A stretch of 64,000 nt of DNA. Source: Isurus oxyrinchus (lineage: Eukaryota). The position numbers were made by a program, and so were the translations under genes. The DNA lies in NCBI GenBank assembly GCA_026770705.1, contig JANJGN010000036.1, positions 1,674,001 to 1,738,000 of the forward strand, in the 5' to 3' direction. The notes beneath the pieces were generated by a model that was not told the origin of the DNA, did no database searches, and saw only the letters and a program-made list of their open reading frames with translations. Shown in pieces: positions 11,961 through 63,382 of this stretch (its first letter is position 1; each line of letters opens with the position of its first letter).

Positions 11961-12015
11961 ATGCCCAAGACATCTTTATCCCTGATGCTCATTTTCCAAG
12001 TGCTGCGGGTTTCTG
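11961..12015 (+). CDS. A1 leader exon
   Basis: ATG..TCT G|GTGAG, 55 nt; same length and similar sequence in paralogue A2. Confidence 0.9.
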
Positions 12016-15000: not shown

Positions 15001-15857
15001 ATATAGGGAACATGCTGTCAGAATAAGGAGCGAGCCATGCAAAACTGAGATCAGGAGGTATTTCTTCAGTCAGAGGGCGGTGATGTTTTGGAATTCTATG
15101 TCACAGAGTGCTTTGAAAGCTCAGCCACTAAGCGTCATCAAGAAAGTTGTCGATAGATCTCTGGAAGCTCATGACATCAAGAGATGTGTCGATAATGGGA
15201 AAACGGTGTAAGAAATAGATGATCAACCATAATCTCTTTGAATGAAGCACCAGACTCGACGGGCCAAATGGCCTGCTCACGCTCCTATTTCCGCTGTCCC
15301 TACGACCGTAGGCCTCCTCTTGTGCTGTGTCATACTGCGATTCTATAATTAAGTTTCCAGATACACATTGTTATGATGCTTTCATACTGATAACGCTGTA
15401 ATTATGGAGCTATCCTTACAGCGCTGTCATTCCATTCATGTCAATGAGCAAACATTGTGTGATTTATCCCATTCTGTGCATCCACTCATCGCTATCACTC
15501 CTCCTGGCTGTGTCTTTTTTGATTTCTTACCCGAAATTAATGATCCGGCTTTTTAAATGGTCACATTTCCCATGAGGATATACCACAAAATAATGATTTA
15601 ACTGAGCAGCAGTTTCTAAGTCTTGTGTCTCTGCAGGAAGTTGGATTCCGGTACTAAACTTTATCAGAATGGTTGTGGCGCTTCAAGTGCTGCTTTTGAC
15701 CCTCATGCTAATTTCCATGCACAAAAGCGGCAGATCAGGTGAGGATTTCGGGGCCATTTTCAAGATTGTTTCTCAATGTGCTTTGTTTCTCATGGTTTTC
15801 AATCTATAATCACAGTTTCTGGTTACAGAAAGAACGAGACAAGAGATCCTTCAATGA
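11961..15857 (+). CDS. Gene A1: non-rearranging VJ-C1-TM Ig-superfamily receptor, type A (about 277 aa); exons 11961-12015, 12276-12602, 12693-13013, 15637-15738, 15829-15857
   Basis: All introns GT-AG, phase 1, open frame: leader MPKTSLSLMLIFQVLRVS; V ...VELAC...WYKQRVGEAPKLI...DSGSYYC...LQNGPTLLTG; C1 VPLVCLVSG..IFW..DGTYSIRSH..TW..FCTCVV; TM WIPVLNFIRMVVALQVLLLTLMLISM; tail HKSGRSERTRQEILQ*. The last coding exon is ambiguous (alternative acceptor at 15816). Confidence 0.85.
12276..12602 (+). CDS. A1 germline-joined VJ exon
   Basis: TACAG acceptor, GTAAG donor; canonical Cys-Trp-Cys and DSGSYYC; G strand in the same exon. Confidence 0.95.
12693..13013 (+). CDS. A1 C1-set domain exon
   Basis: CCAG acceptor, GTGAG donor; VFVPP, LVCLVSG, W, DGTYS, W, CTC motifs. 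Confidence 0.95.
13750..15300 (+). mobile_element. CR1 LINE fragments in A1 intron 3
   Basis: YNVNKCEVIHCG, VQQRLPRLIPGMAGLS, LRGDINE, IRRYFFSQRAVMFWNSM. Confidence 0.9.
15637..15738 (+). CDS. A1 transmembrane exon with intramembrane Arg
   Basis: CTGCAG acceptor, GTGAG donor, 102 nt; GSWIPVLNFIRMVVALQVLLLTLMLISMHKSGRS. Confidence 0.9.
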
Positions 15858-16027
15858 AAGGTAAGTAGCTGCACCATTTGGAAAGTTTATACCGACTACT
15901 CTATTTAACACTGCGTCAAACCCAATTCAACCCCAGCACTCGTTCCAATGATATATGCTGACATGTTTCAGAACCTGTCCTGCCTTTTAGCTATTTTCTG
16001 AATGACAATGTTCAATATACTTCCCAG

Positions 16028-16135
16028 TCTCAGGTTGGAAATCTCCACGCCTCCCTGGACTTGGCTGCATTGGAAAAAGTAGTCATAAAGGAAGGCTGGT
16101 GGCAGATGAATATCTGGGTGATTTCTGACTCATGA
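16028..16135 (+). pseudogene. A1 terminal exon: vestigial ITIM exon (Tyr to His)
   Basis: CCCAG acceptor; phase-0 frame SQVGNLHASLDLAALEK; paralogous exons read SPYTFL (28488) and LYASL (42440). Confidence 0.65.
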
Positions 16136-19110: not shown

Positions 19111-19217
19111 CCGCATTTCACTGTTTCACCCGGTTGCCCGCCTGGTTTGAGGCTCCCGACCTCCCAGAGGAATAAGGGACGAACTCACAAATTCAGCCAC
19201 AGCCTCGGCCGCCGACA

Positions 19218-28487: not shown

Positions 28488-28547
28488 TCTCAGGGCAGAT
28501 CTCCCTACACCTTCCTGGAGTTTGCTGCATTGGAAAATAAATCATAA
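28488..28547 (+). pseudogene. Orphan ITIM-bearing terminal exon (A-related, third type)
   Basis: CCCAG|SQGRSPYTFLEFAALENKS*; SxYxxL is a canonical ITIM; 3' flank homologous to 16135-16530. Confidence 0.7.
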
Positions 28548-31500
28548 AGAAGACGGGTTGCAGGTAAGAATCGGAACACTTTCTCTCTGATGAATTATGG
28601 AGGAGGTAGGATTTGCCAAATAACCCACAACCTCGTGGAAACAAAATGGAGCCATGGAGACCCCCATAAATCAACTAACCTACTCCCACCAGAATTTACA
28701 AAAAAAAAATCTCCTTTTCTAAAATGTGAAGTAAAATGTTTTCAGAATTATTGAGGATATTCCACTATATTCGTGTAATCCAAATGTGAAGGAAACACTG
28801 AACAAATCTTAGGGATGTTCTTCAGTTTCTCTGGACTTTTTCTGTTGATCCTGAAATTCCAATTACTGACAGGATCTTTATTTCTTTGCAAACGTCTGTA
28901 TATAAGTAATTAAAATAAATTATTCTTCCATCATAATGATTCATCAGAGATTTGCATCGATCAATGATTAGCAAATAATTCAATGTCAAATGAATGAAAC
29001 TGCAATTCCTGTTGAGCTGACAATATCAGCACTGGATTGAGATGGTTTGGTGGTGGTGTTTTCTGCCTGAGACGTGACGTCTTTAATCATTTACAAAATT
29101 AGAACACAACAGGAGAAGGACACGGGCCCTCATGTAGGAACCTTGTGATGGTCGCATTTTACTTTTACACAGTGTGTTCTGCTTTGGGCTTAGTTTTAAA
29201 TACATATGTCAGAGCCTTTGGTTCAGTGCAGTGTATTTTGAAAGAAGAGGTGACTTTGCAGCTATGTTTCCCCAAGCCGATCACCACTGGGGTATTCACT
29301 GCTCATGCCTGGAATGCTGTAGACAAATTACTAGGGATATATTGCCATAGAAACCCAATTATCATCGTACCACTGAACTGCCAGACTGGTAGGTGCAATC
29401 TGGATCGATGTTTTTTTTTTCCTTTTCCTGTTTTTATTTCCCTATTTTCCTGATTCCAATTCTGCAAAATTTGGCAACAATGTTGTCAACGAGAGAGATA
29501 AGGTATTACCCCAGAGCCGGGCACACATCATTGTTGATCTGGGTCATATCAGTCTAAATATTCGCATTCTGCTAACTCTGGAATCAAAAGGTAAAGCCGA
29601 TTGAGAGAAACAAGCAACTAAAAACAGCTCCTGGTAAAGTCACTTTCAAGATCCATCTCCCAGAAACTGTCCAATAAACCTGTTGAGGATTTAACTGAGC
29701 TCCTGACTGTAGTGACCTTGTTAATGTGAATTTAGTTTGTATTGTAGTGTTATTGACAACAGATATATTTTAACAGGACTCGGGTTAAGAAGGTTAAACT
29801 ACAAGAGCAGGTTGCTCAGACTAGGCTTGCATTCCCTCCGTGATGATGTTTCTGGTTCACACGAGACTCCTCCCAATCTTCTGCATCCCACCCCATTAAC
29901 ATATCATTCCATTCATTTTTCCCTCATGTGATTATTCAACTTCAACTGAAAAGCACGTTTGATAGTCAACTCAACTTCTCCCCCTGGGAGCGAGCTCGAC
30001 ATTATACCCAATCCTTGGGTAAAGAATATTATCATGAATTGCCGATTGGATTTATTAGTGAATATCTTAAACTGATGGCCTAGCCTTCTTGTTACCACCT
30101 CAAGTGTAGAATCATTTCATAATTTTGAAGACCTCTATCCGGTCACCTTCTCAGTCTACTCTTATCCAGAGAAAAGAGTGCCAGCCTGTTCAATATTATC
30201 TGAAATCATAAAATCTCATTTCTGTTATCATTCCAGTAGAAATGTTCCCAAATCTTAAACCGCACACATCTGCTCTATAAAGATATCGTCAATTGCAAAT
30301 TCAATGAACACATTTGGACTGAGCGACCAAACAACTTCAAATGACAAACGCAATTCTTGGATTTCAAAACCTGCTTTAATGAGTTGGTAAATTGGAGACT
30401 GATGCTCTCTTTCCTGCTCAAGCTGAAACAAAGATCCGCAATTAAATTAAAAAAAAACGCTGACACAACAAAGTAACACATGTAGAAACTGAACAGAAAG
30501 CTAAAATGTCCGAGTGTCAACGTTCTCTTGAAATGCAGCCGGTTCTATGAGGCATGCAGTCTCTCCAGAAGTCGATAAATTGCCTCTTTATTACTGATAA
30601 ATCTGCGTTTAGAATTTGGGATGTCAATTTGTTAGGAAGGTTCACATGTCCAGGCTGTCCGCCAATGAGGACGAAAAAAGAGGTAACTTTCAACAGCACG
30701 TCATATCCTGGAAGCAGCATATGAGCTGTCAATTTCCATTATTATCAAAGTGTTGGGTCCGCATTAAACGCCAGTCGAGCATAAAGAGTCTGCAAGAGAA
30801 AGCACAAACCGTGATCATGAGAAACAGCATCATTAGGGGGCAGAAAGAGGACATTCAGCCCTTCGAGCCTTCACCGCTAGACATTTAAATCATTTTGGAT
30901 CCGCATCTCAACCCTGTTTACCCTCCTTGCTACCATAACCCTTAATCCAACGAAAATATATCACACTGCGTTTTAGCATTTTCTGCTGACCCCCCATCTA
31001 TTTTTTTTACATTTATTGTCAAAGTGCTATTGAAAAGGTAATCAGTGCTATCTTAAAACATGCGCCTTGTAAAGTCTCATACCCTCATATGATAGTAACC
31101 AGATATCTTCAAACTTGAATTCAAAATCCACCATCTCTATTTACACACGCTGAGAACCATTTCTATTCATAGTTACCGCCTTTTCTTCTGTACTTGCTCT
31201 CGAATATGTCAGTTACTTATCAATGTTCATATTGCCTGTTAGAAGGAGCATTTTAAAATAAGTAGAACTGTGCACATTTCACACTGAGCCGGCTGAAAGT
31301 GTATACAGCCCTTCGCCAAGTAGATAGTTTAAGAGCGCTCCTGAGTTACATCTCCTTCCAATCTCCCTCCTGTTTGCCGGGTGTTGCAGATCCTTCCCCT
31401 GGCGAGCAGGACTAACGCCAGAAGGAGTAGCGCCGCCAACAAATTCCTGAAATGCGAGAAACAGCAGGGGGCAGGTAGCGGTGAATCTGGAGAGCAAATA

Positions 31501-31739
31501 AAAAGCATTGTCTTTGAGAATAAATCCCGTAACTGAAGCCTTTTGACACTGACAGAACGGTCAAGTAGACTCTAGCACACGAGAGCTAGAGATGGGCAAA
31601 TAATGTCAGTTTTGTCAATAACATCAGCATCTCAAGGTCATTAAAAAAAATAAGATGAAACAGATTAGAAAAGTGAAGCGAATTTACAAAGCTGAAATCA
31701 GATCGACGGATATGGAGAGAGAGATAAAGTAATTGGGAG

Positions 31740-31970
31740 ATAAATAGAGTTAGAGGGAGAATTATAGAGAGAGAGACAGATGGATGGATGGAGAGAAGGA
31801 GAGATGGATAGATAGAAAGATAGACGGACAGTTAGGCATAGAGCTAAGTAGGTAGATAGCTAGATACACTCATACATGCATACATACACACATACAGACA
31901 TATATACTTACATACATACATACACACAAACATACATACATACATACACACATACATACATACATATATT
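31740..31970. repeat. (GA)/(GATA)/(CATA)n simple repeats
   Basis: Direct sequence. Confidence 0.9.
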
Positions 31971-32489
31971 TCAGCACAAGGATATGATAGAACTACACAA
32001 GAATGACCAGCGCGGTATGGGACACAGGATGAAGTAATGGGGCCTCCAAGTTTCTGCTGACTCTTCAAAGTCCACATTGCAATTCAGCACTTCCAAACCC
32101 CGTCAATCTGAGGAATACTCATCCACCCCCTGCATTCTTCTAACTTTCTATCCATCTTCCCACATCTCATACAAGCTGTGCGTCTTATTATTTCCCAGCA
32201 GCTATCTTGTGAGTCACAGAAAGGCCTTGTGGAAATCCATTCATTTAATATGCAACGTATTCCCTTTAAATATCCATACAGACATTTCTTCAGATTAAAA
32301 GCTCTATTCAACTCTTTAGTCATAACCACACGTCCACAAACCGGTGCGTGCTGACCTTAAGTACCCCATCTACTGAGAAATGCTCACCTATTTCATTTAG
32401 AATAATGGATGGTAAAGGTTTGCCCACCAGTCATGTTAGACTGTCTTGTTTATAGTTCCCCAAATGACTTCTATGCTCTGCTTTTTATT

Positions 32490-32665
32490 CAACGTTAGGA
32501 TTAGAAGGTTTTTGCTAGGAATGATGAGGATTAGGCTTAGGGCCCTGCTTTGTTTCAGTAAGAGTTAGGGCTATCATAAGGGTTAGGATTAGGGTTCGGG
32601 TTCGGATCAGGTTTAAGGTCAGGGTTAGGATTAGGGTTAGGATTAGTGTTAGTGCTAGGATTATA
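32490..32665 (+). repeat. Degenerate telomere-like (TTAGGG/TTAGGA) tract
   Basis: GGTTAGGATTAGGGTTCGGGTTCGG...AGGGTTAGGATTAGGGTTAGGATTAGTGTTAGTG. Confidence 0.75.
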
Positions 32666-32689
32666 CGCTCACTGGAAATGAGTTTCTAA

Positions 32690-33420
32690 ATCGGACAGAG
32701 GTGCAGAGAGAAATGGGTTACAGACACACAAACACTTGGCATTAGAGACAGAGGTTAATAAGGCCACAAAAAGCAAACCACCCAGCACTGGGAGAAATGC
32801 CTAAAGAAATAGAATTGAAAAATAGAAAAGGCTTTGCTGAAGTTATCATTAGCTTATATGTAGAACACTTGTAGTCCTGTGAACAACATTCATCTCCAGA
32901 TTATAAAAAGGATATAAAGGATTGGAAAGGTGGAGACAAAGAACCGTCACCCGGGTGACATTCGCACTGAGAGTTTATAATTATCAGAAAGCTTGAACAG
33001 GCTGGGGTTGTTTTTTTTTCTTGAAAAGAGAAGACTGAAGGGTGACGTGATGGAGAACTTTTGGCTTTTCAAGTGATTTGTGAGCGTAGAAGAAACATTT
33101 TTTTGACATGTGTAGGGTTCATACACGGTCTCCGGGCCATCAATATATGACAGTGCCTAATATCTCATATCTGGAATTCAGGAGAAATTTATAAACCCAC
33201 AGAATAGGGAGAATAGGGAACTCGTTACCGCAGTAGTGGTTAATGTGAATAGCTGAGATGCATTCAGGACAAAACTGGAAAAATACATGAGTGTGGAAGG
33301 AATAGAAGGATATGTTGAATGTGTGATTTGAAGTGGAAATGGAGAGGGCTTGTGCGGAACATAAATAGCAGCACGGAGCAGAGGAGCCGAATGGCCTGTC
33401 GCTCTCCTGGAAAATCTGTT
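32690..33420 (+). mobile_element. Decayed CR1 3' fragment in a B2 intron
   Basis: TTGAACAGGCTGGGGTTG..AGAAGACTGAAGGGTGAC..GAATTCAGGAGAAA..GAATGGCCTGT. Confidence 0.75.
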
Positions 33421-36400
33421 GAATATAGATAATAAGAGAGAGGAATCAGTGGAAGAAGTAGTAAATGGAAAACTAGGGTGTTATTTGATCATTGACATTC
33501 TCGAATGTCCTTTATCCCGCCAGACACATTAATCCCAATGAAACAGAGAGATGAATATTGCATAAAGCTTTACACTGGGAAAATTAGATGTTTGAGATTG
33601 GGGTCATGGGCACATTGGAAGAGGCAATATTTAACCTACAAAGAGATAATGCCAAAAAATAAGCGGCATATAGACTAAACCAGGAAAATATTAATAGCTA
33701 CCTCTGTCAGACAAGAAAATTCCACGAAGAAGAGTTTCACTGGAATTGATTTTAACGGCTGAAGTAAAGCGAGCACCGCTGCTCCAATTCCCACCCAGAT
33801 AATTATATGGCTCCTGACGGCACAGGTTCCATCCGTCTCGATGGTCCCAGAATCGCTCTGTTCCTCGGTATTGCGCCTGGAAACATTCGAGCTGACAGCA
33901 AACCAATCGGGGTCCAAACCCTTCACTAAGCACACCATTGAGGCAACTTCAGCTGGTGGCGGGATTAAGAAGTAGATTATTGGAGATCCTGGCGGGATGG
34001 AGAGATATGATTCAATCGCTAATGGGTTTAAACTGCTGATTAGTTATGGTGCAAAGTATAAAATAATCGTAATGTGTACCTGTAATGAGCAACTAGGAAT
34101 CATTGCACGTCCGTAATGACCAGACAATAGAGAGTGGATCTCTGGTTAATCTCTCCCGAAAATCTCCCGGTTGGAGCGTTGTATTTTGTCCCGGAGAAAA
34201 CAAGTTGTAGATTTTCCTGGTGCTGATATTGATACCACTGGTCCCCCTGCCAACCAGCCGGTGTGACAATGCACCTTTTAGTTACTTCCAAGAGAGAGAC
34301 TATGGGCCGCCAGAGTCTAGGGCAAAAGTGCCAGTGATACAATAACTGGGAGGGAAAAAAATCAACACTAGAAATTCTGTTATGACAGCGAAAGAGAACA
34401 TGTTTCCTCTGCAGAATTGGCTAGAACAGCAAACTATAAAGCACAACAGCCCCATATTAATAAATCAGGTGGATTCAAGCACTGATGGTTTTATTTGAAA
34501 CAGTTGCAGGCGGCAGGGTGAAAGAGAAATGGGATTGCAGCCAGTGAAGGTTTTATGCTCAAGCGCAGCCTCTATTGTAAAACAGGGAATTTGGAGAATT
34601 TGCGCACAGCTTTAATCCACAAAGAGTAACTTGATATTCATCTGGATTGTTTTTTCTGACATTGTTTGAAGGATAAAATTTGTCATGGGGAGGCCCAGGA
34701 AAAAAATGAGCCACCGGGTCATCCACCACCAACCCCCCTACCCCACACACCCATCCCGTGTTCCCACCCCCAACCCAGCGTCGCCCCCCCACACCACCCA
34801 CCCCCTGTCCGCCCGCCACCCAACCTCCCACCACCACCACCATCCCCCCCGCCACCCACCAACCCCCACCCCCACCCCGGTGTCGCCCCAGCTCTTTTGC
34901 TTGCTGGTGAAATGGGGGGGTTTGCCCACCAAATGGGAAGACAGAGAATCTTGATTCACCAGGTAATCCGCTGGATTGGAGAATGTTGACATGTGATCGA
35001 TTATGATCAGGTGAGATAATGTATTTCTCACACATGAAGCTAATATGATAGGATGTAATTGTGGGAGTAATTTTACACCTGACTGACTAGCTCAGTGGTC
35101 TCAAACTTGCAATGAGACAATTCTGAATGAGGAGCGAAGAAGACACAAACCTGGAAGCAGATGCAGCAACGCGCAGGGCATTAACAATCTCAAGTTTGGC
35201 GCTCCCGAACATGTTGCTGTGTGATTTGCACCGTCTCTTCTCTCTGGTGTCTCTGTGCTCGGCCTCGGGACTCATAAGACATGGAGAAAATGCACATTTT
35301 GCAGAGATTAGATGCACTGTTCAAAAATAGCATACTGGAAAAATCTACCCCTGTAACTGTTGGCTGAGGGTTTCCTGTTTACAGGTTAGGAGCCCACGCA
35401 CAGCTCTGCCTGCAAAGGGCAACACGTAACAGCTCGTGTGAGAAGCCTGTGAAAGATGGGGCGTGGCCCAGAGTGGCTCAAACTGTAGGCAAAAGGCAAT
35501 GGTGCTGAATTCAACAATATTAACGCTTGTGACGTTTGCGTGGGTGCAGGGTTAACATCCCTAATTGCGAGCGATTTGTTTAATTCCTCCACAACACACT
35601 AATTTATTCTGGTCTCCACAAAAATAACATGCTAGATTTAATAAAGCTGGAAACAGATGTTAATATTTTGGTAACTGTTTCACCCAATAGCTGTCTCCCG
35701 CCTGTCAATTTCTGTCAGAAGTACTCCTCACTCGCACCCAACACCTTTGAACTAATTACCCTGGATCTGTAATATAGCCATTCTCTGAGAGGGACCCTGT
35801 ACGGCGAGGAGGCTGGAGTTGCACACAAAGGTATTGCGAGGTGGAAACTGAATCTCGTTCGATTTAATCGCTGAAGTGCCCCATAACAAGCTGGTAACAT
35901 TCCAGCCCTTGGACATGCAGCAGCCATACATTCACAAAACGTTTAGATATAGTTACCATTGATTGTTGGAGAAACTTGGACAGAGTGGAGCAAGATCCCT
36001 GATGTTAAGCATGTGGAACAGGATATACAAAACAGAAAAGGATGTACCAAACCAAGTTCTACTCTAGAAAATGTGTGGCCTTGCACGCCGCAATGCTCAG
36101 ATGGATAGACAGGGGTGATAGAATAAAGCGGCAAGATAGAGTTAAGGTATCAATCAATAGCCTGATTTAATGGCAGAACAAACTCAACTGTGAGGATGAA
36201 TGGCTCCTCCTGCGGCATTGTTCCAGTAGGATTAGGAGGACAAAATATTAAAAGACAAATTGAGGACTGATATCACAACGTCTATGACAATTAGACTGAT
36301 TAACATTGGGAATTATTCTCTGGGTAGGGAAAATGGTGCGGCGAGTTGGGAGTTGGCTATTGGGGTGGATGGTGAAACCCACTGAAATTATTTAGGAAAC

Positions 36401-42250: not shown

Positions 42251-42381
42251 AATTGTTTGATGGGGATCTCCATGGCTCAATGGTTACTTGTGCAAGGCTG
42301 TGGGTTCTTTCGCAAATCGTCTCTCCTGCATAATTCATCGGAGGGAAAACATCCGGATTCTCATCTGCGACCCGCCTTCTT

Positions 42382-50771: not shown

Positions 50772-53700
50772 TCAGAGTAAATCCATCCCGGGTTCCCATC
50801 TGCGATCCGCCTTCTTTTTCGATCTATTTTCCAATGCAGCAAACTCCAGCGAGGTAAAGGGAGGTCCTCCCCAAGACTGGGAAATATATTAAACATTACT
50901 ATTAAAAGCAAGTAAAAGACAGGTCAGGTAATCTCTCTAACATTTATCAAAGTATTTCCTGATTTTTCTCTGTTAAACAATGCTCAGCTCTATCTCCACG
51001 CTGAACTTGTGGCTGCTTTGATGTTCCTGCCATTTAACATTGATTCTCTCCTCTCCCTTGGTGAATCCCTGATAGTTTCCAGTCCGCCCCCTGAGGGAGG
51101 GTTTGTATCACTTTAATCAAATGATAGAGACAAACGTTTACGGAGATGAGGATTCGCCCTTTTAAATTCATTCATTCACACAGAGACAAAATAACACCAA
51201 TTGCAACCAGCCCTGCTGCTTCTGACATGACGTTAGGCTTTTCACCCCCAATACCAAAACAGTTCCAGAACTGATATTTAATTTTTGTCCTTGGAATTAT
51301 TTTTCTCTTTAGATATTTACCTCAATGCCATTTAAAAGTTAATATTGACAGCGGAAGCTGAGCCAAGAACTCACACATCGACGCGCGTACACACATAAGG
51401 CGAAACTCATAGGCACAGAAATACACACGCACGCACCCGGAACGACACACGCGCGCACATAAATATCTATATTGTACACACACACACACAAACACACACA
51501 CACAAGCACAAAACAAACTGGATTCGAACAAAAATGCAATGCAAGTGTTAGGTCTTGTAAATCCTGGCTAATGTGCCAGAAAAAAAAGTGCAGAAAATTG
51601 TCGAGCGGTCTTGGAATCAGACTTGAAAGATCATGGAACATGTCAGCGTCTATCATTGGAATCAGTGTTGGAATTGAACTGGGTTAGACACAGTGTTAAA
51701 TATGGACAGGGCGTTCGGGATAAAGTGTTCAAATGGCTCAGTTAGTCACTTTTCATTGGGGGATCTCTTGTCTCGTTCTTATGAAAGGAGAATCTGTAAT
51801 TCGCAGTTTAAAACTGCGAGAACAGAATCACATTGGACAACCAATTATGAAAATGTCCCTGATAAACATTGATCCTGACCTGATCTGCCGCTTTTATGTG
51901 TCCAAATGAAAATGAACATCAAGAGTAGAACTGGGATCGCCGCCACTATTCTGATAACATTAAGAGTCGGAATGCAGCATCCTACAGAGAAAACACAATT
52001 AGAAAAAGCTGCTCGGTCCAATCATTATTTTCCGAGATTCCCTCATGGGAAACGTGATGCAGTTAAAAGTTGGTGCCTCAAACAGCAAGTGCGACAGATC
52101 GCGGCGAATGGACGCACGGAATGAAATATATGAAGCAATGTTTTCCAGTTGAGATCAATTGGAGGACAGCACTGTCAGGATTAGTCCAAGCTTATAATGT
52201 ATCAGGATGAAAAGATCTTACCAATGTCTACCTGGAAACTGAGCTGGAGAATGATAGACTGAACCAACAAGGAAGGAGGCAGTTCGGCCCATCATGTCTG
52301 TGCCAGCTGTTTGTGTTAAATAAATCAACACATTTTTTTACGTTTGGTTCTCTCTCAGTGAAAAGAGTTTCTCCTTATTCACTCTATCAAAACCATTCAT
52401 GATTTTGAGCATCTGTGCAAAAAGTTCCCGTTAACCTTCTCTCCTGTAAGGAGAACAAGCCCAGATTCTCCATTCTCTCCACATTAACGGCCGCATTCTG
52501 GTAAATGTTCAAAGTACCTTCTCCTAGGGCACAACACTCCAGCTTGCCTCTGACCAGGCTTTATAAATTGCAAGTTTCCCTTCTATTTGATTCCTCCATT
52601 ATTTAAGCCGAGGTCTCCCAATGTCTTTTAGCGACAATCACAACTTGTCCTGCCACCTTGAGATATTAGTATACATGCGCTACCTCCCAATGAGAGTTCA
52701 AACCGATCAGCTCTAAATAACCCAACTTCAATGTCGGTTGATAACCCGAGGTTAGTGTTAAATCCGGCTTACTGATATCACCAACTGATATTAAAATTAA
52801 ACTGCATTTTTTCAGGTAAATTCAGATTGATAAAGTACATTCCGGGAAAAGAAGACGGAGAAAGGAGGAATTGAGTGGTAGCTACGACCCTGCACATTCA
52901 TCGCTTTTCCCCAGCTATCTCATCTCTTCACTGCTTTCTGCTCATAAACGCATTCAGTGTGGAACTAATCTCAACCCTGTTCCTCATCCACTGCCTGAAA
53001 TTACGGGGAATCCGAATGAATTATACCTTTCATCAGGGATTTCGGATTATTTAAGGAGATTTTATGAAGGGGAAAGTGTTACAGATTATTGGGAAAGAGT
53101 GCAATTAATTGAATATCCCCTTTCTGTGCTGTATCACACTGTAATTTTAAGATGTCGCATAGTAACATAAGGCGAGTCAAGAAAGTCTCCCACTCGGACA
53201 GAGGGAAACATTAAATTATGCCAAGAGATTGAATGCACTTTTTAACTTACATTATAGACAGACACAGACGCAATCATACATATGTATATAAGATATATGT
53301 ATATACACAAACATACACACATAGAGACACATATACACACATATTCATACGCACACATATTTCCAAACAGGCATACACACCCGTACATTATCTATATATC
53401 CATGGTATTCTGTGGATTTCCTGGACATGATTAATTCGGGCTATTAGAAATTACCGAATTAGTCCCACTGATACTTTGAATAAAAGCCACCATTGAATAT
53501 ATCACCAGCTCACCTATCCCTGCCTGTGCTGATTTGGACAACGTGCTCTTGGTCCAATATTTTTTTTCTGGAGACCCCCAGTGGAACAATATAAGTGCAC
53601 ACAGCGTCTCTATTCCAGGTTTCCCTCGACACCATGACGTGGCTTCTGATAATGTAGGTCCCGTCTGCCTCACTTGTACCGGGATCGCTCGGTCTCTCGG

Positions 53701-54724
53701 TGACCAGGCCGGAAATATTCTACAAAATAGCAATCTGGTTGGTGAAACACCACTACCAAATACACTAAGGGGGCGGTTTCCCTCAAAGGCAGCTCACCCG
53801 GCGGGGCAAACACCACCAAAACCGTCTTGTTTGTGGGACTGTCTGGACAGAGTTTGCGGGACAGTTAACGCTTAATTTGCACGATATGTTAATATTGTGT
53901 ACGAGCTGAATTCATTTCAATTACTCTCTCACCTCCAACCAGTGGAGTCGATCCATTCTGGAGAAGTGCATAGCCATCCTTCTCAGCAAATACAAACTTC
54001 AAATTTGTCGAGGTCGCAGGTTTAGAAGGTGAACGCCTGGATTTCGGAAAGTAGCATCATTGTACTCCACCTCATTTATTCTGTGAAAGTGGTTGTACAA
54101 GACTTGTGATAAAATCTGGCCCACTCATTCAGCTGGAGATTGCGAATTTGTTGAAAGGATTCATATTCGCTGTCACCTGTTTTTGGAAATAAAAATACTA
54201 TGGGTCCACTGAGAAGGAGAGATATCGACAAGATTCGTGTCTTCACACACACGCTGTTTGTACCAGAAATAGCTCGACACAAATTCCACTTCATAAATGT
54301 AGTGGCAGATTAATTCCACCGTGTCTGCGACTTCAGCTGTCATTATGAAGGGACCCTGAAACAGAGAGGGCTCGGATTCTGCAACTAGAGAGATTATTGC
54401 TACATTACCGCAAGTTACTGAGAGATAGGACGCAGCCGGTTTGAAACACGTCGCATTAATTCAAGAACAGTCACATCATTATTTTCAATTACTTTTGGCT
54501 AGATTAATTCTGGAATTTGCGGGGTTTTTTTCACTTTATGGGAGGAATCATTAAATGAACTCACATGATTGGAGCAAATCCCTTCACCTGAACACTGGGT
54601 CAGAATTTCAGCTTTGTTTCCACTGTTTCTGCTGATTCAGTTTAAAATTTTCACCCGCCTCTTACTTACCAGAAATTCGCAGCAGTTGGAAAATGAGCAT
54701 CAGAGGTAAAGATTCCTTGGACAT
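50772..54724 (-). pseudogene. A2 pseudogene; exons 54724-54670, 54378-53933, 53842-53514, 51981-51880, 51793-51750, 50876-50772
   Basis: Leader MSKESLPLMLIFQLLRIS; V MTAEVADTVELIC..SSYFWYKQRV with a frameshift and an insertion replacing DSGSYYC; 90-bp V-C intron as in A1; C1 Cys>Tyr plus frameshifts; TM GCCIPTLNVIRIVAAIPVLLLMFIFIW; terminal exon PPFTSL. Confidence 0.9.
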
Positions 54725-55939
54725 CTTGATGCGGTGAGTTCTCCCTGTTTTCGCTCTCACCAGTTTGTTACTGCAGGTCGAGTGGCCGCAGACTGACCTG
54801 AGCTCAGTCCCAGTGAGTTGCTCCCCTTTCAAATGCGGCGGAAACTATGACGAGCTATGCTATTGGACAGATGACACTTTTTAGGTACGGGTCCTGGTGA
54901 GTGCCACACCTTAACACACTAAGGTCACCGTCTGTGCGTCACAGCTGTCAAGTCGCCGAATGTTTAAAAAGAACTTTACTGGGCTGTCGTTCACGGGGGC
55001 AGCGGTGGGGGTAACAGAATACTAATTGTATGGTGGATCTTCAAAGTTGAAGATAAAATTTGATTCATTCCCGGCATGTAAGCCTCACTGGCAAAGCAAG
55101 CATGTATTAACCATCTCTAATTGCTTCTTGAGAAGATGATGGTCAGCCGCCTTCTTGAGCTGCTGCGTGCCACGTGGAGTAGGTACACCCACAGTGCAGT
55201 TAGGAAGAGAGTTCCAGTATATTGACCCAGTGACAGTGAAGGACCTGCAGTCCTTTCCAAGTCAGGGTGTCACGTGGCTTAGAGAGTACTTGCAGGTGGT
55301 GGTGATCCCATGCAACTGCTGCCCTGGTACTTCAAGGTTGTAGAGGTCGCAGGTTTGGAAGGTGAATGCCTGGTATTCAGAAAGGAGTATCATTATACCG
55401 CATATAATTTATTCTTTGAAGAGGTTGTACAAGATTCTTGATAAACTCTGGTTAACCCCGAGTTTGGGAAACATGGAATGAAATAGGCATGGTTTGATTT
55501 GTATGTGAATTACTAGCATCTTATTCTCCATAACACAAGTTACACAGAGACCTAGAGTGGAATTCTAATGGGACAAACACGTTCATTCACGACACATATA
55601 GAGAATCTCAGTGAACGAAACTCTTTCGAATTCAGTTCTACTCCTTAAAAGTTCCGTGCATTGCCCTCCTTTTGTTTAAGTCTCATTAACCAGGTTTTCA
55701 ACTGTCTTAATCTGTGATACAAAACACCAGTGGGGATTTACCTGAATCCAGTGTTCTGAGTTCGTGGTAGAATTTTATTTGCCAACGACCTGATTGATCC
55801 CTTGAAGGGAATTTCAAACAATAATACATTTTTCGCTTTATGTTTTAGGCTAAGTGCGTTCACAGCAGTTCAATGGAAAATTCAGTGTGCAGTTATGACG
55901 TGCAACAAGCTGTCAAGCATCATTGATGTTACAGTTTAT

Positions 55940-56960
55940 AGAGTTACATCAAATTCATAGCACAGAAACAAGCCATTCGACCCGGTTGCTCGTGCTCATC
56001 TTCATGCTCCGCACGAGGCTCCTCCCACCCGTTCTTGATCTCACTACAAAATCAAAATTTTCTCTTCCTTTCCCCCTCGAGTGTTTGTTCAGGTTCCCAC
56101 TTAAATGGATCTCTGCAATAGCTTCAAACATTTCCTGTGGGAGAGGGTTCCACATTCTCCCCACTGCCTGTGTAAAAAAAGATTCTGCTGAATTCCCGAA
56201 TGGATTTATCTGCTATCAATGACCCATGGTTACCGAGGGTCAGAGGAACACGAGGTTAGGTCATTGCGCCCTTCGAGCCTGCACCACCATTCAATAATAT
56301 CATTGGCCGATGTGGTTTTAGTCTTGAACCCATTTTCCTGTCTGCCGCATATAGGCCTTGACTACCTTGCCGAAAAAATCGGTCTAACATGGCCTTGAAT
56401 AAATTGAAAGACCCAACATCCACTACTTTCTGGGGAAGAGAATTGCACGCACCGACGACTCTTTGGGTGAAAAATAATCTCCTCATCTCTGTCTTAACAT
56501 GTGGACCTCTATCTTTGATCCATGCCTCTAACTTTTGCCACAACAGGATTCATCCTCCGGGTATCCGCCCTATCAGGGCCCCTCAGGAATTTACATGTTT
56601 CAATTAGATCACCTTTGATTCTTCTAAACCCCAATGGGAATTCCTGAATTCTCCTGGATTCGCGGTTGGACTTATTGATGACCTATATTTTTGAAATCCT
56701 GCAGATGTAGAGGCATCTTCCCTTCCGTCTGCTGAAATAAACCATTTCGTCACTTTAAAGACCTCGATCAGGGTACCCTTCAACCTTCCCTCTTTTTAGA
56801 AAAAAGGGCTCCAGCCGGTTCATTCTTTGCTGTTAGAAATAAGCTCCCTATTCTGATATCATTCGTGTGAAACATTAACTGCACCTTTTCCAGTGCCTCT
56901 GTATTCATTCTAGAATATGCAGAACTGTTTTCTGTACTCCAAGTGTGGCCTAAATGAGGT
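55940..56960 (-). mobile_element. Cluster of CR1 3' fragments between A2 and B3
   Basis: EMRRLFFTQRVVGACNSLPQKVVD..FKAMLDRF; RMWNPLPQ. Confidence 0.85.
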
Positions 56961-57207
56961 ATTGGCCTTTGGTAAAAAAAACAAACATTTCATGAGCGCG
57001 TGGCACTTTGGCCTGTAATAAACAGGAAAATCGCAGATAGTTGTCTACCTCGACACCATGTTCCAACCCCTTTCATATACCTATGAATAAACACAGAAGG
57101 CCGTTCATCTGCACATTTCACATCTCCTTCACACGGCGATATCGAGAACGAGTTCTCAGTGAGTTTCGCATCGGGGCTCAGAGTCTGATCGCCTGAAGTT
57201 ACGTAAA

Positions 57208-60200
57208 ATGAGCTTCCTCGCTGTGTGTGCATTATGCCATCTCTCCCAGGGTGAGATATCTTAGCATGTTCAGATAGAGTTGAGGAGGGAGTGGATACAG
57301 TAAATAAGGAGCAACTGGCGGGAAGGACTAAAATCAGAGGGACACAGTTTGAATAGAATCGGCCAGAAAATCAGAGGAGGAGATGAGAATATTTTTCTTT
57401 AACTAAGCGAGTTGTAGTGATCTGGAAGACTCTGCTTGAAAAGGCGGTGGCAGTAGATTTAGTAGGAACGTTCACATGGAGATTTGAACAAATACTTGAA
57501 AAGGAAACATTTGCAGGAATATGGGGGAAGGAGCGGGCGGGTAAGTGGGGCCTAAGTGGATCGATCTCTCAAAGTGCCAATGGCATCCACCAGCATTGTG
57601 CGGTTCAAGAAGTTGAAATTCAGTTATCAAGTTCTACGTACAAATAGAAAGAATATCGTCAACAACGTGGAATTTGTGCATCCGTCAGGATCAATGGATG
57701 GTATTAATTCGAAATGTAACCACTCCTGGGATAAAAGGTGTGAGTTGGCTCCATTGACATTATTAGCGATTGAGCAGAGACCAGAGTTTCAAGTACATTG
57801 TTAGAGTGAGTTATAATCTCTTGAACAAAATAAAGCGCCCAAAACAGGCGGGGATAAACGGGAAACGAAGGGTGCTTGAGAAATATTAAAAGTTGGAAAA
57901 TTCAGAGTTGAAGCACCTCTTTTAATGTATTAACTTCACACCGTTCCCAAGTGTGGACCCCAGTGATTAAACCAGATTTCCTGCCGAATGAACTTCTGCT
58001 GGGCCCTTGGAAAGACAGGGATAAAAATGCGCAAAGAATCCATAGCATGCGATTTTTCGATATGGGCTATTATTAAAAATTCTTTGTGCCTCCTCTCTTT
58101 CGAGGTGTATTCGCCGGAGGCCGGTCTCAGTAGAGAGGATGTGCGGGTGCGGGGTGATGGGCTGCACCATAACCTGAGGTAACTCTTGTTTATTTCTCTC
58201 TCGCTCAATTATTGTGTCTCAGCCTGCTTTGCCCAGTCTCCGCCGGTTCAAACATTCCCTGCGGGGAGTCGCGATAAACTGAGCTGCCACACGGAGAAAC
58301 CAGGAGTTGGCTACGTCTTCTGGCACAGACAGTCGGATCGAAACGACATGAAGTTGGTTTATAAAGCGCACAAGCACCTTCCAGCTGTGGGGAGTGTTTC
58401 CAGCGAGATTTCTGATAAAGAGAGTTATTATTCACTGCTCGTTGAGGATACCCGGAGAAATGATTCTGGAATGTTTTACTGTGCCATCCGCAATTACACA
58501 AACATGGCTCTAACTTTCGCAAATGGCTCCCAGTTAGTGACAAAAGGTAAATTTAATCATTGTTCCATTGAATTGGGCACTTCTACGGCAAAGTCTCAAG
58601 TTTCAGCTGTTAATGGGGTTTCTGTTCCAAATCCCAACTTTAGAGGGCTCGCCCGCCATATTCCTCCTCACCGCGCTGGAGCATGTGATCCATTCGATGA
58701 AAAGGGTCCCGCTGTTGTGTTTGATGAGAGGCTCGTCCCCCGATTCCTTTCCCATCCGCTGGAATGTTTCCGGGAGGGTTACCGAGGGACAGACCGATTC
58801 CGGGACAATTGAGATGGACGGGACAAACACCATGAGGAGTTACCCCAGCCTCTCGGAAAAAACTTGGAGCAGCGGCCCTCTCTGTACTTGCGCCGTTCAA
58901 ATCAACTCCAGTGAAAATCTTCTCAGTGCACGTGTCTTATCTCACACAGGTATCTATTAACAGTGACCGTTTAACTATCTATTTAATGCTGATGGCAGGC
59001 TTTGCAATTTTGAAAATTAGAATTGTCTTCCTTTTCGTCTGTGTCCATGTATCATCATTCTATCCTTGAACTATCACAGGTCTCTCAATCTTTCAGACTT
59101 TAGCTTTCTGAAATTTTAACTCCATCTGTTCTCTCTACCCCAGAGAGTTATGGATGTTCAGTCACTAAGATAGATTTTTGTACACTAAGGAAACAAGTGT
59201 TGCAGATAGCGCGGGAACGTCAAGTTGTTGTGCAAGATTAGCCATAGCCTTATTGAGTGGAGCATCAGCTTTGAGGGACCGAATGGTCTTCTGTTCCGAT
59301 TTCTTGTGTTGTTTCTGTCTAGGCGTATTGACCTGGTTGCCTGCTGCTTGATGATTTATCAATGTGTAAAATTGAAAGGTGCGATTACATTCCCAGTGTA
59401 CCATTTTGTCTCACCATGCTGTGTACAGTTATCCATTCATCTCTCTATCTACTGAATATTCACAATATTTCAGTCTGTTTCAGTTAAAAAGTGAGGTATA
59501 AGACATTTTCTGTATCTGTCTGTTTATCTGTTCATCCTTCTATCTATTTCTCTCTCTCTCTCTCTCTTTCTCTCAATCAATCATTCTATTTCTGTGCTAG
59601 TGCAGTAAAATATATCTGGCCCCTCTGCCTGTCTGTTTGTCTGTCTGACTCTGTCTTCCCCCCTCTCTCTACTGACCTCCTCTCGCTCTCCAACTGCATC
59701 TCTCTGTCTCAATCTTTCCTCGTCGTTCACCCTGTTTGTGTGCCGTTTTCTGTCTGTCTCGTTCTGTGCCCTAATAATTTATGTATTGTGTCCTCTATTT
59801 ACCTATCTTACTCCCCCTCTGAATACCTCGAATAACTCTACCGCACTGAAATGATGCGGCAACAGGAATCAATGTCCATTTATCTCTCTATTTATATCAC
59901 TCACGCTCTCTCCACACCTCTCTTCCATTATTTCTCTCTGCTTCTTCTTGCCGCTATCTCTTGCCTCATCTCTGCCTGTCTCTAATTCTCTTGCTCTATT
60001 TCTATCCTTTTCAATAAACAGTTCTGTTTACGCTGTCAGTTCTATCTATCTATCTATCAATCAATCTATCTATCTATCCATCTATCAACCTATCCATTTA
60101 TCCATCTATCTCTCTGTCTCTCTGTCTGTCTATTTTTCTATCTTCAACTGTCTGTACTCCAACTCCCTCTATTTCTCCGATTTGTACGGTGTTCCATAAG

Positions 60201-61577
60201 TCCTCTTCTCTCTGTCTCTTTCTCTCTGTATCTGTCTCTATCTCCCTTTCATTCTATATGTCTCTATCTAACGATTTATTTCTGTACTTCTACCCTAGTC
60301 AATCTGTTTTGTATCATATATCTGCTTTCTCGGTCAATCGCTCTCCATCTCTCTCTATCTTATTGTTTATGTCCTGTTTAATCGGTATAAAATCTGTGTT
60401 CTCTTGCTGTCTATCTCTGTCTCTCTCTCTCTCTCTTCATTTCTCCCCTCTATTTCTATCTCTTTCTATTCCTGTCCTGTTTCAATATTGTTCTATGTGA
60501 TCTCTGCTCCATTTCAGGGTGATGAAGTTTGCAAAAAAATCTATTTCCGCTATCGATTGATATCAAACATGTAAATTGACTAAACTTATCTTGTTTAATT
60601 AATTCCACAAACTTCTTTAAATGGGAGTTTCATCTATTTTTTTGCAGATTCTACGTTTTCCGCGGGTGTGTCGGCGGCGGCGATTTTCCTTCTGGGAGTG
60701 ATCCCTCTGGCCGGGAGAAGGAGCTGCAGGAACTGGCAGACAGGTAGCGACTGTTGAGAGACGCTCTAGTTCCGCGGCGCTCTCAGTCCATGCATTTATC
60801 AATTGATTATGACACTTTCAGCCGTTTCTTTGTGAAATGTAGCCATTTATAATCTGTTGAAATTTTACTTTCTAACCGGAAACATGAGCAATGATGAGGA
60901 ACTGACAGATTCCAGAAAACAAAGAGAGAACAAAGAGGTAACTGAATGGAATTGTTGCTGCCACTACGCGTGGATGCTTTTCACCTACTTTTAATTTAAG
61001 TTTTAAATTTCATAGCTATAGTTATATGAGCCTGGACAGCTTTGCCAAGTGAGCACCACAGGGTGGCAGAAACAAGGCTTCAACCCCTCGAGTGCAGAAG
61101 ATTCAGAGGTGATGTTACTGAGGATTTTAAGATCGTTAATGGATCCGATGGGGTCAATGGAGATAAACTATTTCCCCCTGGTGAGGTTGGGAATCTAGAA
61201 CAAGGGGCAGAGCGCTGTAATTAGAGCAGCGCTTTCAGGGATGATATCAGGAAGCAATTCGTCACACAAAAGCCAGTGTAAATCTGGAACTCCCTCTCCT
61301 CAAAAGCTGTTGAGCATGCGGGAACAATTGGAAACGTCAAAACTGAGATTGACAGATATTTGTCGTGTAAGGGGATTAGAGATTATAGAACCGAGTTGGG
61401 TGGATGGAAGTTATGATACAGATCCGCCATGATCTAATTGAATAGACTGAATGGGCTCAATGACTTCTTCCAAACCCTATGATTATGGTGCTGGTTATTT
61501 TAATAGATTCTGTTTTCACTTTTTCGCCACAGACACTTTATGACCGATTGGCCTTTAAAGAGGATGCCACACTTTGA
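57208..61577 (+). CDS. Gene B3: VJ-C1-TM receptor, open frames but two altered acceptors (functional variant or young pseudogene); exons 57208-57250, 58223-58546, 58644-58949, 60648-60743, (60879-60937), 61533-61577
   Basis: MSFLAVCALCHLSQ; V KLSC..FWHRQ..DSGMFYCAIRNYTNMALTFANGSQLVTK; C1 VPLLCLM..IRW..DGTNTMRS..TW..LCTCAV; TM FSAGVSAAAIFLLGVIPLAG; tail TLYDRLAFKEDATL*. Ancestral V acceptor CAG>CAA; cytoplasmic exon acceptor AG>CG. Confidence 0.75.
59500..60490. repeat. About 1 kb pyrimidine-rich (TC/TCTA) low-complexity tract in a B3 intron
   Basis: Direct sequence. Confidence 0.9.
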
Positions 61578-63382
61578 TTGTAACGAAAGAGGGGGACTGC
61601 TCACGGTCTGCTTCCCGAAGACAACGTGCTTTAGAAAGCTTCCTCTAATCACAGGAAAGTCTGAAATTCCAATCCGCACAAATTCACGCCCATTCTCTGT
61701 GCAATTTTGTGATTTTGCCCAAAGCGCAGACTGATTTTTCTCTTAATGCTAGCTGTTCGAACGATCAAATATCGAATTGCAGCTTCTCCTGGTATCTGTG
61801 ATCTGGCATTAGCGCATTTATTCGAATTCTGCATTATTATACAATATGTGAGGGAGACATTACTCAATTAGATTTTACAATGTATCTGTGCTCGAGTTAT
61901 CTAGATATCAAAACAGAATTGAAAACCAATGACTGCTCTGTCAAACGATTTTCTTTTCCATTCAGGCCAGATGTGCTCAGGTCCCTCTGAGATCAAGATT
62001 CCAACACATTTATAGAACGAATGTAAACAGGATAGAGTTAGGGTTAAGGACGGAAGGGTACTGGATCGAGATTTAGGCTGCATTGATATGGAAGCTGCAG
62101 TGTTAATGGACCTCAAGCCTTCATTGGTTGTGTTCTGGGAGGGAACAGTGTTACAATTACACTAGAAGGAAGATTATTTACAATTCATCCACCCTCTTAA
62201 TACTACAGTTGAGTGGATTTTACCGGCTAAATTCTCTGGTTCGAAGACACTTAAAGCACATGAAGAGGCATTCTGCCCATCACGCCAGAGCCAGCTCTTT
62301 GAATGTGCAGTTTAGTACCACAACATATCAATCTCATTGTCCTAAGAATTAGACTTCTTGTAGCACACTGCCCATTAAATGTTAGTATCGGTCCTGCACA
62401 TCTCATCGGATGTGACTGAAAGCGCCTTGTTGGCCATGTTAATAATTGACAAACGTGAACACAATTCGCTCCTCAGATTAGAATATCAGTTAAAAGAGTG
62501 AGTGAATTTGAGTTGATGTTTCATTGAGATGATGTAATCTATTTCCATGTTATCTTTAATTTTATCAATATTAAACGGCTATCCTGTAATCCCTTGGTGT
62601 GCAGATTGCCTGATATTTTTGTTAGTGATTCAACTCTGATCTGCAGAACGTCTTAAGATCCCCGTTTGTAACGATTTGCAACATTCCAAAATTAATACTG
62701 GCTTATTCTGCTGCAAAGTCTCTTTCTGCGCAGATATCTGGGAGTTTTTCGAGACACTTGTGACAAAATGCACACGGAAAAGCAAACCACAGTTCCTCCG
62801 TCTGGAAAGGCTGTGTCATCTTCAACGACAGCGACTACTTCTTAAGAGAAAATAAACTCAGGGCATTCTCAACCGTCACCCTATTGCCCTTATGCAGAGG
62901 ACCAGCCTTATTGCTGATCACTCTGTGCGTCATCGACCCCCAGGCATTCGTCAAGTTAATATAATGATACATTAATCCTGCAGGCACACTGGAGCCATTC
63001 AGTCCCTCTGTTTGTATCTGGCATTCGATATGATCATGGCTGATGTTAGGAAATTGAGATAGTTTAAGTAAATTATATGTATATTTAGGTTTAGGTTTAA
63101 GGTGCATCTGTAAGTTTATATTATGCTTTTTCTATTTGCCGATTAAAATATGAAACCTGGCATCTAGTTTCATTTTTGAGTGGAGGGAGCATGCTTAAAG
63201 CTGTTTATACACTTGCATTACTATAGGGTTTTATGACCCTTGAAGAGAAGGTAAAGCAAACACAAGAATGGAAACGAAAACGGTGCTATTCCACTGCAAT
63301 AGGGATCGAAGGAAGGCGGCTCTCGCACCCATAAACAAATGGACAGATGAATACACACACACATGCACACAGACACAAACAG

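Follow-up and report, generated by a model that had tools for sequence, protein, structure and literature searches.

Can two divergent genes for antigen receptor-like chains, with start codons some 2.5 kb apart, encode the two halves of one germline receptor? The window in which this question arises, 64,000 nucleotides of a contig from the shark Isurus oxyrinchus, contains genes of two types, A and B (Table 1).

A2 and B3 are a decayed head-to-head pair

As the preliminary description had it, A2 and B3 stand head to head: the A2 ATG (54724, minus strand) and the B3 ATG (57208, plus strand) diverge, with 2,484 bp between them. Its reading of both chains as V-C1 also held, given the exon plan common to the two genes (leader, single VJ exon, C1 exon, TM exon). 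Both genes are broken. The A2 VJ exon has a 1-nt insertion, stops, a lost second Ig cysteine codon, and a repeat insertion of ∼115 nt at about 53996 to 54119. In sum, B3 has lost two splice acceptors, one nucleotide by deletion, and its stalk cysteine.

Table 1. Features of the A and B genes in the window
Feature	Position	Strand	Remarks
A1	11961..16080	+	Leader (11961-12015), VJ (12276-12602), and C1 (12693-13013) intact
A1 TM exon	15637-15738	+	Arg-type, without stalk Cys
B1	19218..24260	+	Intact six-exon gene; member of unpaired B1-like sub-lineage
B1 5' exons	Leader 19218-19260, VJ 19872-20210, C1 20684-20986	+	Intact
B1 3' exons	TM 22847-22960, cytoplasmic 23096-23154, last from 24216	+	Intact; stalk Cys in TM exon, TLYxxL in last exon
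B2	30748..34361	-	Decayed B-type remnant; V about 34103-34361, C1 about 33688-34037
B2 3' parts	TM about 31368-31487, tail 30748-30792	-	Decayed
A2 last exon	50799..50879	-	Phe in place of the Tyr of the family's motif
A2 stalk/TM exon	51880..51981	-	Arg (NxxR) activating type; stalk Cys kept
A2 C1 exon, broken	53514..53842	-	Single-base deletions and stops
A2 VJ exon, broken	53933..54378	-	446 nt versus 327 in intact copies
A2 leader exon	54670..54724	-	55 nt; ATG at 54724; GT donor
A2-B3 spacer	54725..57207	.	2,483 bp between the ATGs
B3 leader exon	57208..57250	+	43 nt
B3 VJ exon	58209..58546	+	AA at the canonical acceptor; 338 nt versus 339 in seven sister copies
B3 C1 exon	58644..58949	+	Open; dN/dS about 1.1-1.8 versus three sister copies
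B3 stalk/TM exon	60648..60743	+	24-nt deletion takes out stalk Cys; TM neutral
B3 first cytoplasmic exon	60879..60937	+	CG at the acceptor
B3 last exon	61533..61583	+	Tyr motif (TLYxxL)

Might B3 still be functional, as a stalk-shortened chain made via a shifted splice acceptor, so that the A2/B3 locus is half alive? An AG located 14 nt downstream of the lost VJ acceptor could in principle yield an in-frame product: combined with the 1-nt deletion, it gives an open frame across V and C1, and the stalk deletion keeps the frame. We nevertheless regard this as unlikely, as the second acceptor and the stalk cysteine are also gone, dN/dS in C1 is at or above 1, and the distance of B3 to its sisters (0.11 to 0.13) is about twice that among the sisters (up to 0.07). 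The A2/B3 pair is a dead, decayed copy of an ancient head-to-head cassette and, because it is broken, the wrong pair for testing a heterodimer.

A1 and B1 had been presented as intact neighbors. Both are intact across leader, V, and C1, but they lie in tandem on the plus strand and are not divergent. No divergent B partner was found upstream of A1, whose tail motif has His in place of Tyr, and a divergent A accompanies 0 of the 13 copies of the B1-like sub-lineage. We rejected A1-B1 as a cis pair on the basis of the tandem arrangement and of a B1 lineage that is never paired. No RNA data set was listed as matching the V-C1 stretch of A1. When positions 11900 to 24400 of the window were compared with contigs of four runs, presumed to be RNA, X9 and X12 covered short pieces of exons at depths of 2 to 5. 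In these two runs, B1-type exons were about 95 to 97% alike and A-type exons about 88 to 90%, and the A-type matches are taken as paralogues because of this low likeness; no splice joint was found among the matches listed, and the signal is too faint to serve as evidence of expression.

The A-B cassette recurs across a large cluster

A-B cassettes form the repeat unit across a cluster of ∼3.5 Mb. This cluster holds at least 82 copies of A and 68 of B, with the cassette amplified about fifty times, and clusters of rearranging light chains are interleaved with the A/B cluster. A divergent A V exon lies 2.6 to 4.3 kb from 32 of the 55 canonical B V exons, versus 5.7 ± 2.1 (maximum, 16) in 2,000 shuffles that serve as a null for copies that are themselves non-independent. 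All 32 A-B neighbors within 6.5 kb are divergent, none being tandem or convergent, and 17 of the remaining 23 B exons have decayed divergent A remnants, so that 49/55 B have head-to-head A sequence upstream. The ATG-to-ATG distance was mappable in 30 of the 32 cassettes, where it is 2,309 to 2,849 bp. In the same number of cassettes, A distances track B distances (Mantel r of 0.75, reached in 0 of 2,000 permutations). Two whole-looking cassettes lie on C36, at about 625 to 640 kb and 667 to 682 kb.

Are the two partners of a cassette kept together? Among the 32 cassettes, both genes are intact in 4, only B in 20, only A in 2, and neither in 6. The 4 doubly intact cassettes compare with 4.5 expected; partners are not co-retained in cis. 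In the cassettes of seven B3 sister copies, B remained open and the A partners carry a common inactivating insertion. Of the 29 intact A genes, 23 lack a nearby B. The lack of co-retention in cis agrees equally with independent function and with pairing in trans.

VJ exons are single (327 nt in A, 339 nt in B). A scan found no RSS near the V exons of A1, A2, B1, and B3; a similar scan detected a perfect heptamer with a 12-bp spacer at two IgL loci.

A and B lineages in other vertebrates

In a tree of V plus C1 (54 sequences, with two light chains as the only outgroup), the A type is supported at 99/96 and the B type at 99/97, and the clade of each type unites sharks with lungfish, sturgeon, amphibians, and reptiles. 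A V-only FastTree agrees (support of 91 and 90); a C1-only FastTree leaves the lineages unresolved. Judged from these trees, A and B are two ancient lineages. Both types occur on contigs of equal size, taken as shared, in Cetorhinus, Heterodontus, Mustelus, Carcharodon, Rhinatrema, and Acipenser, and relatives are also present in ray-finned fish, lungfish, amphibians, and reptiles. Homologues of A and B have Pfam V-set and C1-set domains; searches of PDB and Atlas returned only generic Ig, SIRP-like, and auto-named clusters. The family is easily overlooked because databases label its genes antibody or TCR chains. In the literature that we found, the shark cluster is undescribed; the supplements of Fu 2019, Ohta 2019, Flajnik 2023, and Dornburg and Yoder 2022 may list its genes.

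Signaling types of the A and B chains

An NxxR TM segment is present in 20/82 A copies; tails were mapped for 16 of them, and none keeps the Tyr motif (Phe in 8, His in 8). Another 48 copies have a neutral TM segment, with the Tyr motif kept in 25 of 31 mapped tails; two "T" calls in this tail count are mis-mappings. Of the 29 intact A genes, 25 have a neutral TM and 3 are Arg-type. Among the 32 paired A, 12 are Arg-type, including A2, and all 12 are broken, whereas all 6 intact paired A are neutral. Arg-type A is also found in three other sharks (P0019, P0026, and P0029). B has the Tyr motif TLYxxL and neutral A has YASL; in most shark copies, the residue at -2 departs from that of the textbook ITIM. 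Intact B TM segments contain no mid-membrane basic residue, and an activating/inhibitory split was not seen within B.

The preliminary description had assigned an adaptor-recruiting role to one chain and a Tyr motif to the other. This fits only Arg-type A; most intact A have a neutral TM with a Tyr motif, as B does. It had also set the heterodimer against paired receptors, which is a false choice: the split between charged TM without Tyr and neutral TM with Tyr that marks paired receptors is seen within A, making this lineage a paired activating/inhibitory family in its own right.

Predicted pairing of the A and B chains

The stalk cysteine is kept in the 21 intact canonical B genes with the TM exon read and in 28/29 intact A genes, the exception being A1; it would suit a homodimer just as well. 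Pairing-type framework residues, claimed for both chains, are borne out for B by its FGxG-type J motif; A keeps the C-strand Gln and the pairing-loop Pro but not the J-motif Phe. Multimer structure prediction, proposed earlier as a check, gave the basking-shark A and B ectodomains a predicted ipSAE of 0.66 versus 0.18 for the best of three controls, in a comparison without A-A or B-B homodimers. The pass mark is attained by 51/78 solved versus 2/108 mismatched pairs (39/65 versus 2/126 for eukaryotes). Model runs share at least 80% of contacts, and partner pLDDT is at least 78. In the model, Pro66 of A packs on Phe118 of B, the C1 A-strands meet, and the interface includes both stalk cysteines (A240 and B237). 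The model was built without alignments, and close cousins also pass; both chains match thousands of antibody chains, and the pass can stem from resemblance to solved Fab or TCR complexes.

Do A and B form a heterodimer?

The proposed A/B heterodimer is plausible for the family, given the conserved cassette, the stalk cysteines, and the structure model, though A2/B3 itself is a broken copy. We lean modestly toward the view that intact relatives of A2/B3 form disulfide-linked A-B heterodimers, as non-rearranging VJ-C1 surface receptors. A less probable but serious contender is that A and B are independent paired-type immune receptors, monomeric or homodimeric, and that the head-to-head arrangement is merely the inherited shape of a duplicated block. 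Independent decay in cis speaks for it, as do the intact A genes, most of which are solo, and the never-paired B1-like lineage. Neither chain would need the other for signaling, because each carries its own Tyr motif, and alignment of the cassettes revealed no sharp conserved island in the spacer. Excerpts of one report on UrIg and UrIg2 indicate that homodimers of shark non-rearranging VJ-C1 chains are possible (PMC12227049). Against independence, the two lineages are retained on one contig from sharks to caecilian and sturgeon, their V faces are complementary (B offers the J-motif Phe and A a Pro), and the A-B model passes.

Could the cassette instead be a co-regulated unit, with a shared bidirectional promoter and a fixed TCR-like alpha/beta pair of one adaptor chain and one Tyr chain? 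The tight spacing and the Arg-type A in over a third of the pairs would suit this reading, as would spacer identity among cassettes, which at 0.72 to 0.84 exceeds that of B intron 1 (0.62 to 0.72). The A2-B3 spacer, in which dispersed-repeat fragments are present, aligns over its full extent in about 28 to 30 of the 31 other cassettes. However, the A-side flank is conserved as much as the spacer, intact solo A genes retain only about the first 0.7 kb of the spacer, cis partners are not co-retained, and every paired Arg-type A is broken, the intact paired A being neutral. We consider co-regulation of a fixed pair highly improbable. The 2.5-kb spacing is most simply geometry inherited from the duplication that created A and B, rather than a proven shared promoter.

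How would the favored A-B heterodimer work? The chains would pair V-V and C1-C1 as in a Fab or TCR and would be joined via their stalk cysteines. B would serve as the neutral-TM chain with a Tyr motif, and A would set the sign: inhibitory in the majority (neutral TM plus Tyr motif) or activating, in which case the NxxR arginine, with Tyr lost, would recruit an adaptor of the FcR-gamma/zeta type. Since the two genes of a cassette decay independently of each other, any A-B pairing would take place in trans, and co-expressed chains could then yield a combinatorial germline repertoire. It is conceivable, if on balance doubtful, that sharks carry such combinatorial two-chain receptors, built from some 29 intact A chains and at least 36 intact B chains, with A switching between inhibition and activation, as a living pre-RAG heterodimer ancestral to Ig/TCR pairing. 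If true, this would be a living model of what preceded antibodies and T-cell receptors. The current shark candidates for the origin of the two-chain V-C1 antigen receptor, UrIg and UrIg2, form homodimers. With two old, linked VJ-C1 lineages that are expanded in sharks, have activating and inhibitory forms, and lie amid rearranging light-chain clusters, the A/B family offers a direct test of a non-rearranging A-B heterodimer and of combinatorial pairing.

Comparison with known systems

According to excerpts of one report, UrIg and UrIg2 are shark non-rearranging VJ-C1 chains that are able to homodimerize, with three C1 domains in UrIg and nine or more in UrIg2 (PMC12227049). As far as these excerpts go, A and B resemble them as elasmobranch, non-rearranging genes with a single-exon VJ plus C1, linked to antigen receptor or MHC genes, and differ in having one C1 exon before the TM exon, rather than three or more C1 domains, and a large two-type cluster (PMC12227049). 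Like TCR alpha and beta, A and B are two different V-C1-stalk-TM chains with a stalk cysteine and a Fab-like predicted pairing; unlike them, they have no RSS, the mark of RAG rearrangement, near the four V exons scanned, and B and most A have no basic TM residue and have long tails with Tyr motifs. We rejected membership of A and B among TCR (no RSS, Tyr tails), IgL, and UrIg (single C1).

In CD94/NKG2 and LILR/KIR-type receptors, as in the A lineage, one chain comes in an activating and an inhibitory version whose ectodomains are alike. The shark genes are also similar in that an Arg near the outer TM end of A accompanies loss of the Tyr motif, and in their fast birth and death. They differ in fold, which is antigen receptor-type VJ-C1 and not C-type lectin or C2/I-set, and in B, the presumed common chain, which forms a multigene family of its own and bears a Tyr motif.

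The PRARP pair, which is represented in chicken, consists of two non-rearranging IgSF genes with a joined VJ, a V-C1 ectodomain outside birds, and a Tyr-based tail, and its chains form disulfide-linked homo- or heterodimers. We liken the shark genes to it under this definition. Together with the Xenopus VJC1 genes, reportedly described by Ohta et al. in 2019, the PRARP genes are among the closest systems known. A and B share with PRARP their linkage, absence of rearrangement, and single joined VJ exon, as well as a V-C1-TM plan with a Tyr-based (ITIM/ITSM-like) tail; where PRARP has a canonical J-like segment, B has FGNG and shark A is without the Phe. Among 30 named representatives of A/B relatives, none is from a bird and none is labeled PRARP, a name in use in excerpts of two papers (PMC10751288 and PMC11599192). 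The shark cluster differs in its copy number (82 or more for A, 68 or more for B), in its Arg-type activating A, in having a B1-like lineage without partners, and in the rearranging light-chain clusters interspersed with it. A and B probably represent PRARP in its shark form.

Divergent A/B gene pairs form the repeat unit of a large cluster

According to the preliminary description, A2 and B3 lie head to head with start codons 2.5 kb apart, and this was borne out: the two ATGs diverge at a distance of 2,484 bp (see table). In each gene, a phase-1 leader is followed by a single joined VJ exon, a single C1 exon, the stalk/TM exon, and cytoplasmic exons. A search around the V exons of A1, A2, B1, and B3 turned up no RSS. 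The nearest named homologues are shark sequences. The neighboring A1 and B1 were also said to be intact; their leader, V, and C1 exons are, but the two genes stand in tandem.

Searches of the Isurus oxyrinchus genome gave at least 156 matches for A1 and at least 74 for the B3 V exon, all on contig JANJGN010000036.1 among the matches listed. Removal of B-type hits and split fragments left 82 A loci, and setting aside six fragments that were weak or duplicated left 68 of the 74 B loci; with 150 candidates scored in each search, these counts are lower bounds. The cluster spans ∼0.58 to 4.10 Mb of the contig. A divergent A lies 2.6 to 4.3 kb away (V to V) from 32 of 55 canonical B genes (5.7 ± 2.1 in shuffles), a decayed A remnant lies upstream on the opposite strand in 17 of the remaining 23, and no tandem or convergent A-B neighbors within 6.5 kb were found in the cluster. 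In 30 of the 32 cassettes (the other two were not mappable), the ATG-to-ATG span is 2,309 to 2,849 bp, and A distances track B distances across cassettes (r = 0.75). These copies are not independent, because the 30 B genes collapse to 21 groups at 3% divergence and to 15 at 7%. Identical proteins are encoded by some blocks, and assembly doubles are therefore possible. Long near-identical segment repeats encoding identical proteins (loci L021-L023, L005/L006, and other blocks) reflect either very recent duplication or assembly doubles.

The second B sub-lineage, B1-like (13 copies, including B1 and L076-L080; 42 to 46% identical to B3 in V), never stands head to head with A (0/13 with a paired A); orthologues of this sub-lineage occur in catshark, skate, and mobulid rays. 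Its members are candidates for a partner-less or trans-acting chain. Also within the cluster are 11 IgL V-plus-C units (1.49 to 3.69 Mb); the two examined have a split V, an RSS with a 12-bp spacer, and a separate J.

Coordinates of features (window positions unless a contig position is given)
Feature	Position	Strand
Broken IgL V, decayed RSS-like site, C remnant	1083-1416 and, just before the window, JANJGN010000036.1:1673370-1673588	-
A1 start	11961	
A-type V exon (example)	12276-12602	
A1 TM exon	15637-15738	
B1	19218-24260	
Orphan last-exon remnants (A-type, B-type)	28434-28628	+
	42294-42461	-
	45696-45784	+
B3 3' flank, 2-kb duplication	45341-47437 vs 61194-63266	
A2 ATG	54724	-
B3 ATG	57208	+
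L034	contig, about 982 kb	
L071, L072	contig, about 3908, 3972 kb	

Cassette partners decay independently

A2 is dead: relative to A1, its V exon is interrupted by stops, by a 1-nt insertion, and by a repeat insertion of ∼115 nt, and it lacks the codon for the second Ig cysteine; its C1 exon has single-base deletions and stops. The B3 V acceptor is AA and the exon 338 nt long, versus AG and 339 nt in seven sister copies; a 24-nt deletion has removed the stalk cysteine, and the first cytoplasmic acceptor is CG. For C1, comparison of B3 with three sisters gave a dN of 0.13 to 0.14 and a dS of 0.07 to 0.12, whereas all seven C1 comparisons of intact B genes with one another had dN below dS. An in-frame product is conceivable via a downstream AG, so the death of B3 is probable rather than certain.

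Are cassette partners retained together? They are not. Scored for leader-V-C1 integrity, the 32 cassettes comprised 4 with both partners intact (4.5 under independence), 20 with B only, 2 with A only, and 6 with neither. Overall, 29 of 82 A genes were intact, 23 of them solo, as were 36/55 canonical B genes and 5 of the 7 B1-like genes examined. The same A insertion is common to eight cassettes, including A2/B3, seven of which have an open B, and a B-leader remnant lies upstream of 1 of 15 solo A genes checked. The spacer, a candidate shared promoter, can be aligned over its full length in almost every cassette. Its identity over 13 representatives is 0.72 to 0.84, similar to that of the A-side flank (0.76 to 0.81) and higher than that of B intron 1 (0.62 to 0.72), and it peaks in the last 200 bp ahead of the B start codon. 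At cluster loci L003 and L004, both chains are intact in the leader-V-C1, TM, and Tyr-motif exons (A middle tail exons partly covered).

Signaling anatomy and possible heterodimers

Shark B chains combine a neutral TM with a TLYxxL tail, and ray B chains carry a related Tyr motif. The 82 A genes divide into 48 with a neutral TM, 20 with the NxxR arginine, 5 with Arg elsewhere, and 9 unread. In LILR-like receptors, the NxxR arginine recruits an FcR-gamma-type adaptor; by analogy, Arg-type A, annotated also in catshark, epaulette, and bamboo shark, may do likewise. A split between an adaptor chain and a Tyr chain had been proposed, and it suits NxxR A, with Tyr kept in 0/16 mapped tails, but not neutral A, with Tyr kept in 25/31. 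Intact genes number 3/20 for NxxR A (A1, L136, and L137, the L136 TM exon being mapped short) and 25/48 for neutral A, and all 12 paired NxxR A genes, A2 included, are broken. That every cassette encodes a fixed, co-regulated adaptor-plus-Tyr pair appears to us very improbable.

Fourteen kilobases downstream of L136 and L137, which with A1 make up the intact NxxR genes, the intact B genes L071 and L072 carry an Asp in the TM; a charge pair is conceivable, but the Asp is absent from their broken paralogues. The intact A gene L034 has its TM Arg elsewhere and a His replacing the tail Tyr, and is possibly a second origin of an activating form. In A-type V domains, the middle region is short and bears an extra cysteine pair, as it does in sturgeon, turtle, and lizard relatives.

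All but one of the 29 intact A genes carry the stalk cysteine (28/29), as do all 21 intact canonical B genes with a TM exon read; A1 lacks it but has a cysteine near the V exon start. In a V+C1 tree of 54 sequences, shark A formed one group (99/96) with proteins from lungfish, sturgeon, paddlefish, amphibians, and reptiles, and shark B another (99/97) with proteins from lungfish, sturgeon, caecilian, turtle, and alligator. A third V-C1-TM group, from lungfish, coelacanth, and ray-finned fish (proteins P0058-P0064, P0095, P0108, P0114, P0122), fell outside both clades. The V-only tree agreed; the C1-only tree did not resolve the A and B lineages. In four sharks, Rhinatrema, and Acipenser, A and B proteins come from contigs of equal length, apparently shared ones.

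Multimer prediction, suggested as a check, was applied to the basking-shark A (P0001, 19-241) and B (P0036, 19-238) ectodomains, which may or may not be cis partners. The model passed with an ipSAE of 0.66 (best control, 0.18), at least 80% contact agreement between runs, and partner pLDDT of at least 78, but the pass may reflect likeness to solved Fab/TCR complexes because both chains resemble antibody chains. The ipSAE mark was reached by 51/78 solved and 2/108 mismatched pairs (eukaryotes, 39/65 and 2/126). The predicted interface is Fab-like and contains both stalk cysteines.

On balance, we lean toward a scheme in which a disulfide bond would join intact A and B chains into a heterodimer, the partners would meet in trans, most dimers would be inhibitory on both chains, and some would be activating via Arg-type A; we infer that A and B pair and are co-expressed. 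That they act instead as independent homodimers or monomers seems to us less likely, although the cis data fit this equally well as trans heterodimers, and mixed homodimer/heterodimer behavior is possible.

Comparison with known systems

The divergent geometry is real, the A2/B3 copy is dead, and the family is of interest. It is neither TCR nor IgL, nor is it UrIg/UrIg2 as described in PMC12227049. No published account of the shark A/B cluster was found in the literature searched, which did not reach the text of key papers. The family is probably of a known kind, its closest match by description being the PRARP pair, reportedly the subject of Fu et al. in 2019. PRARP is mentioned in passing as a joined-VJ gene in two further sources (PMC10751288, PMC11599192).
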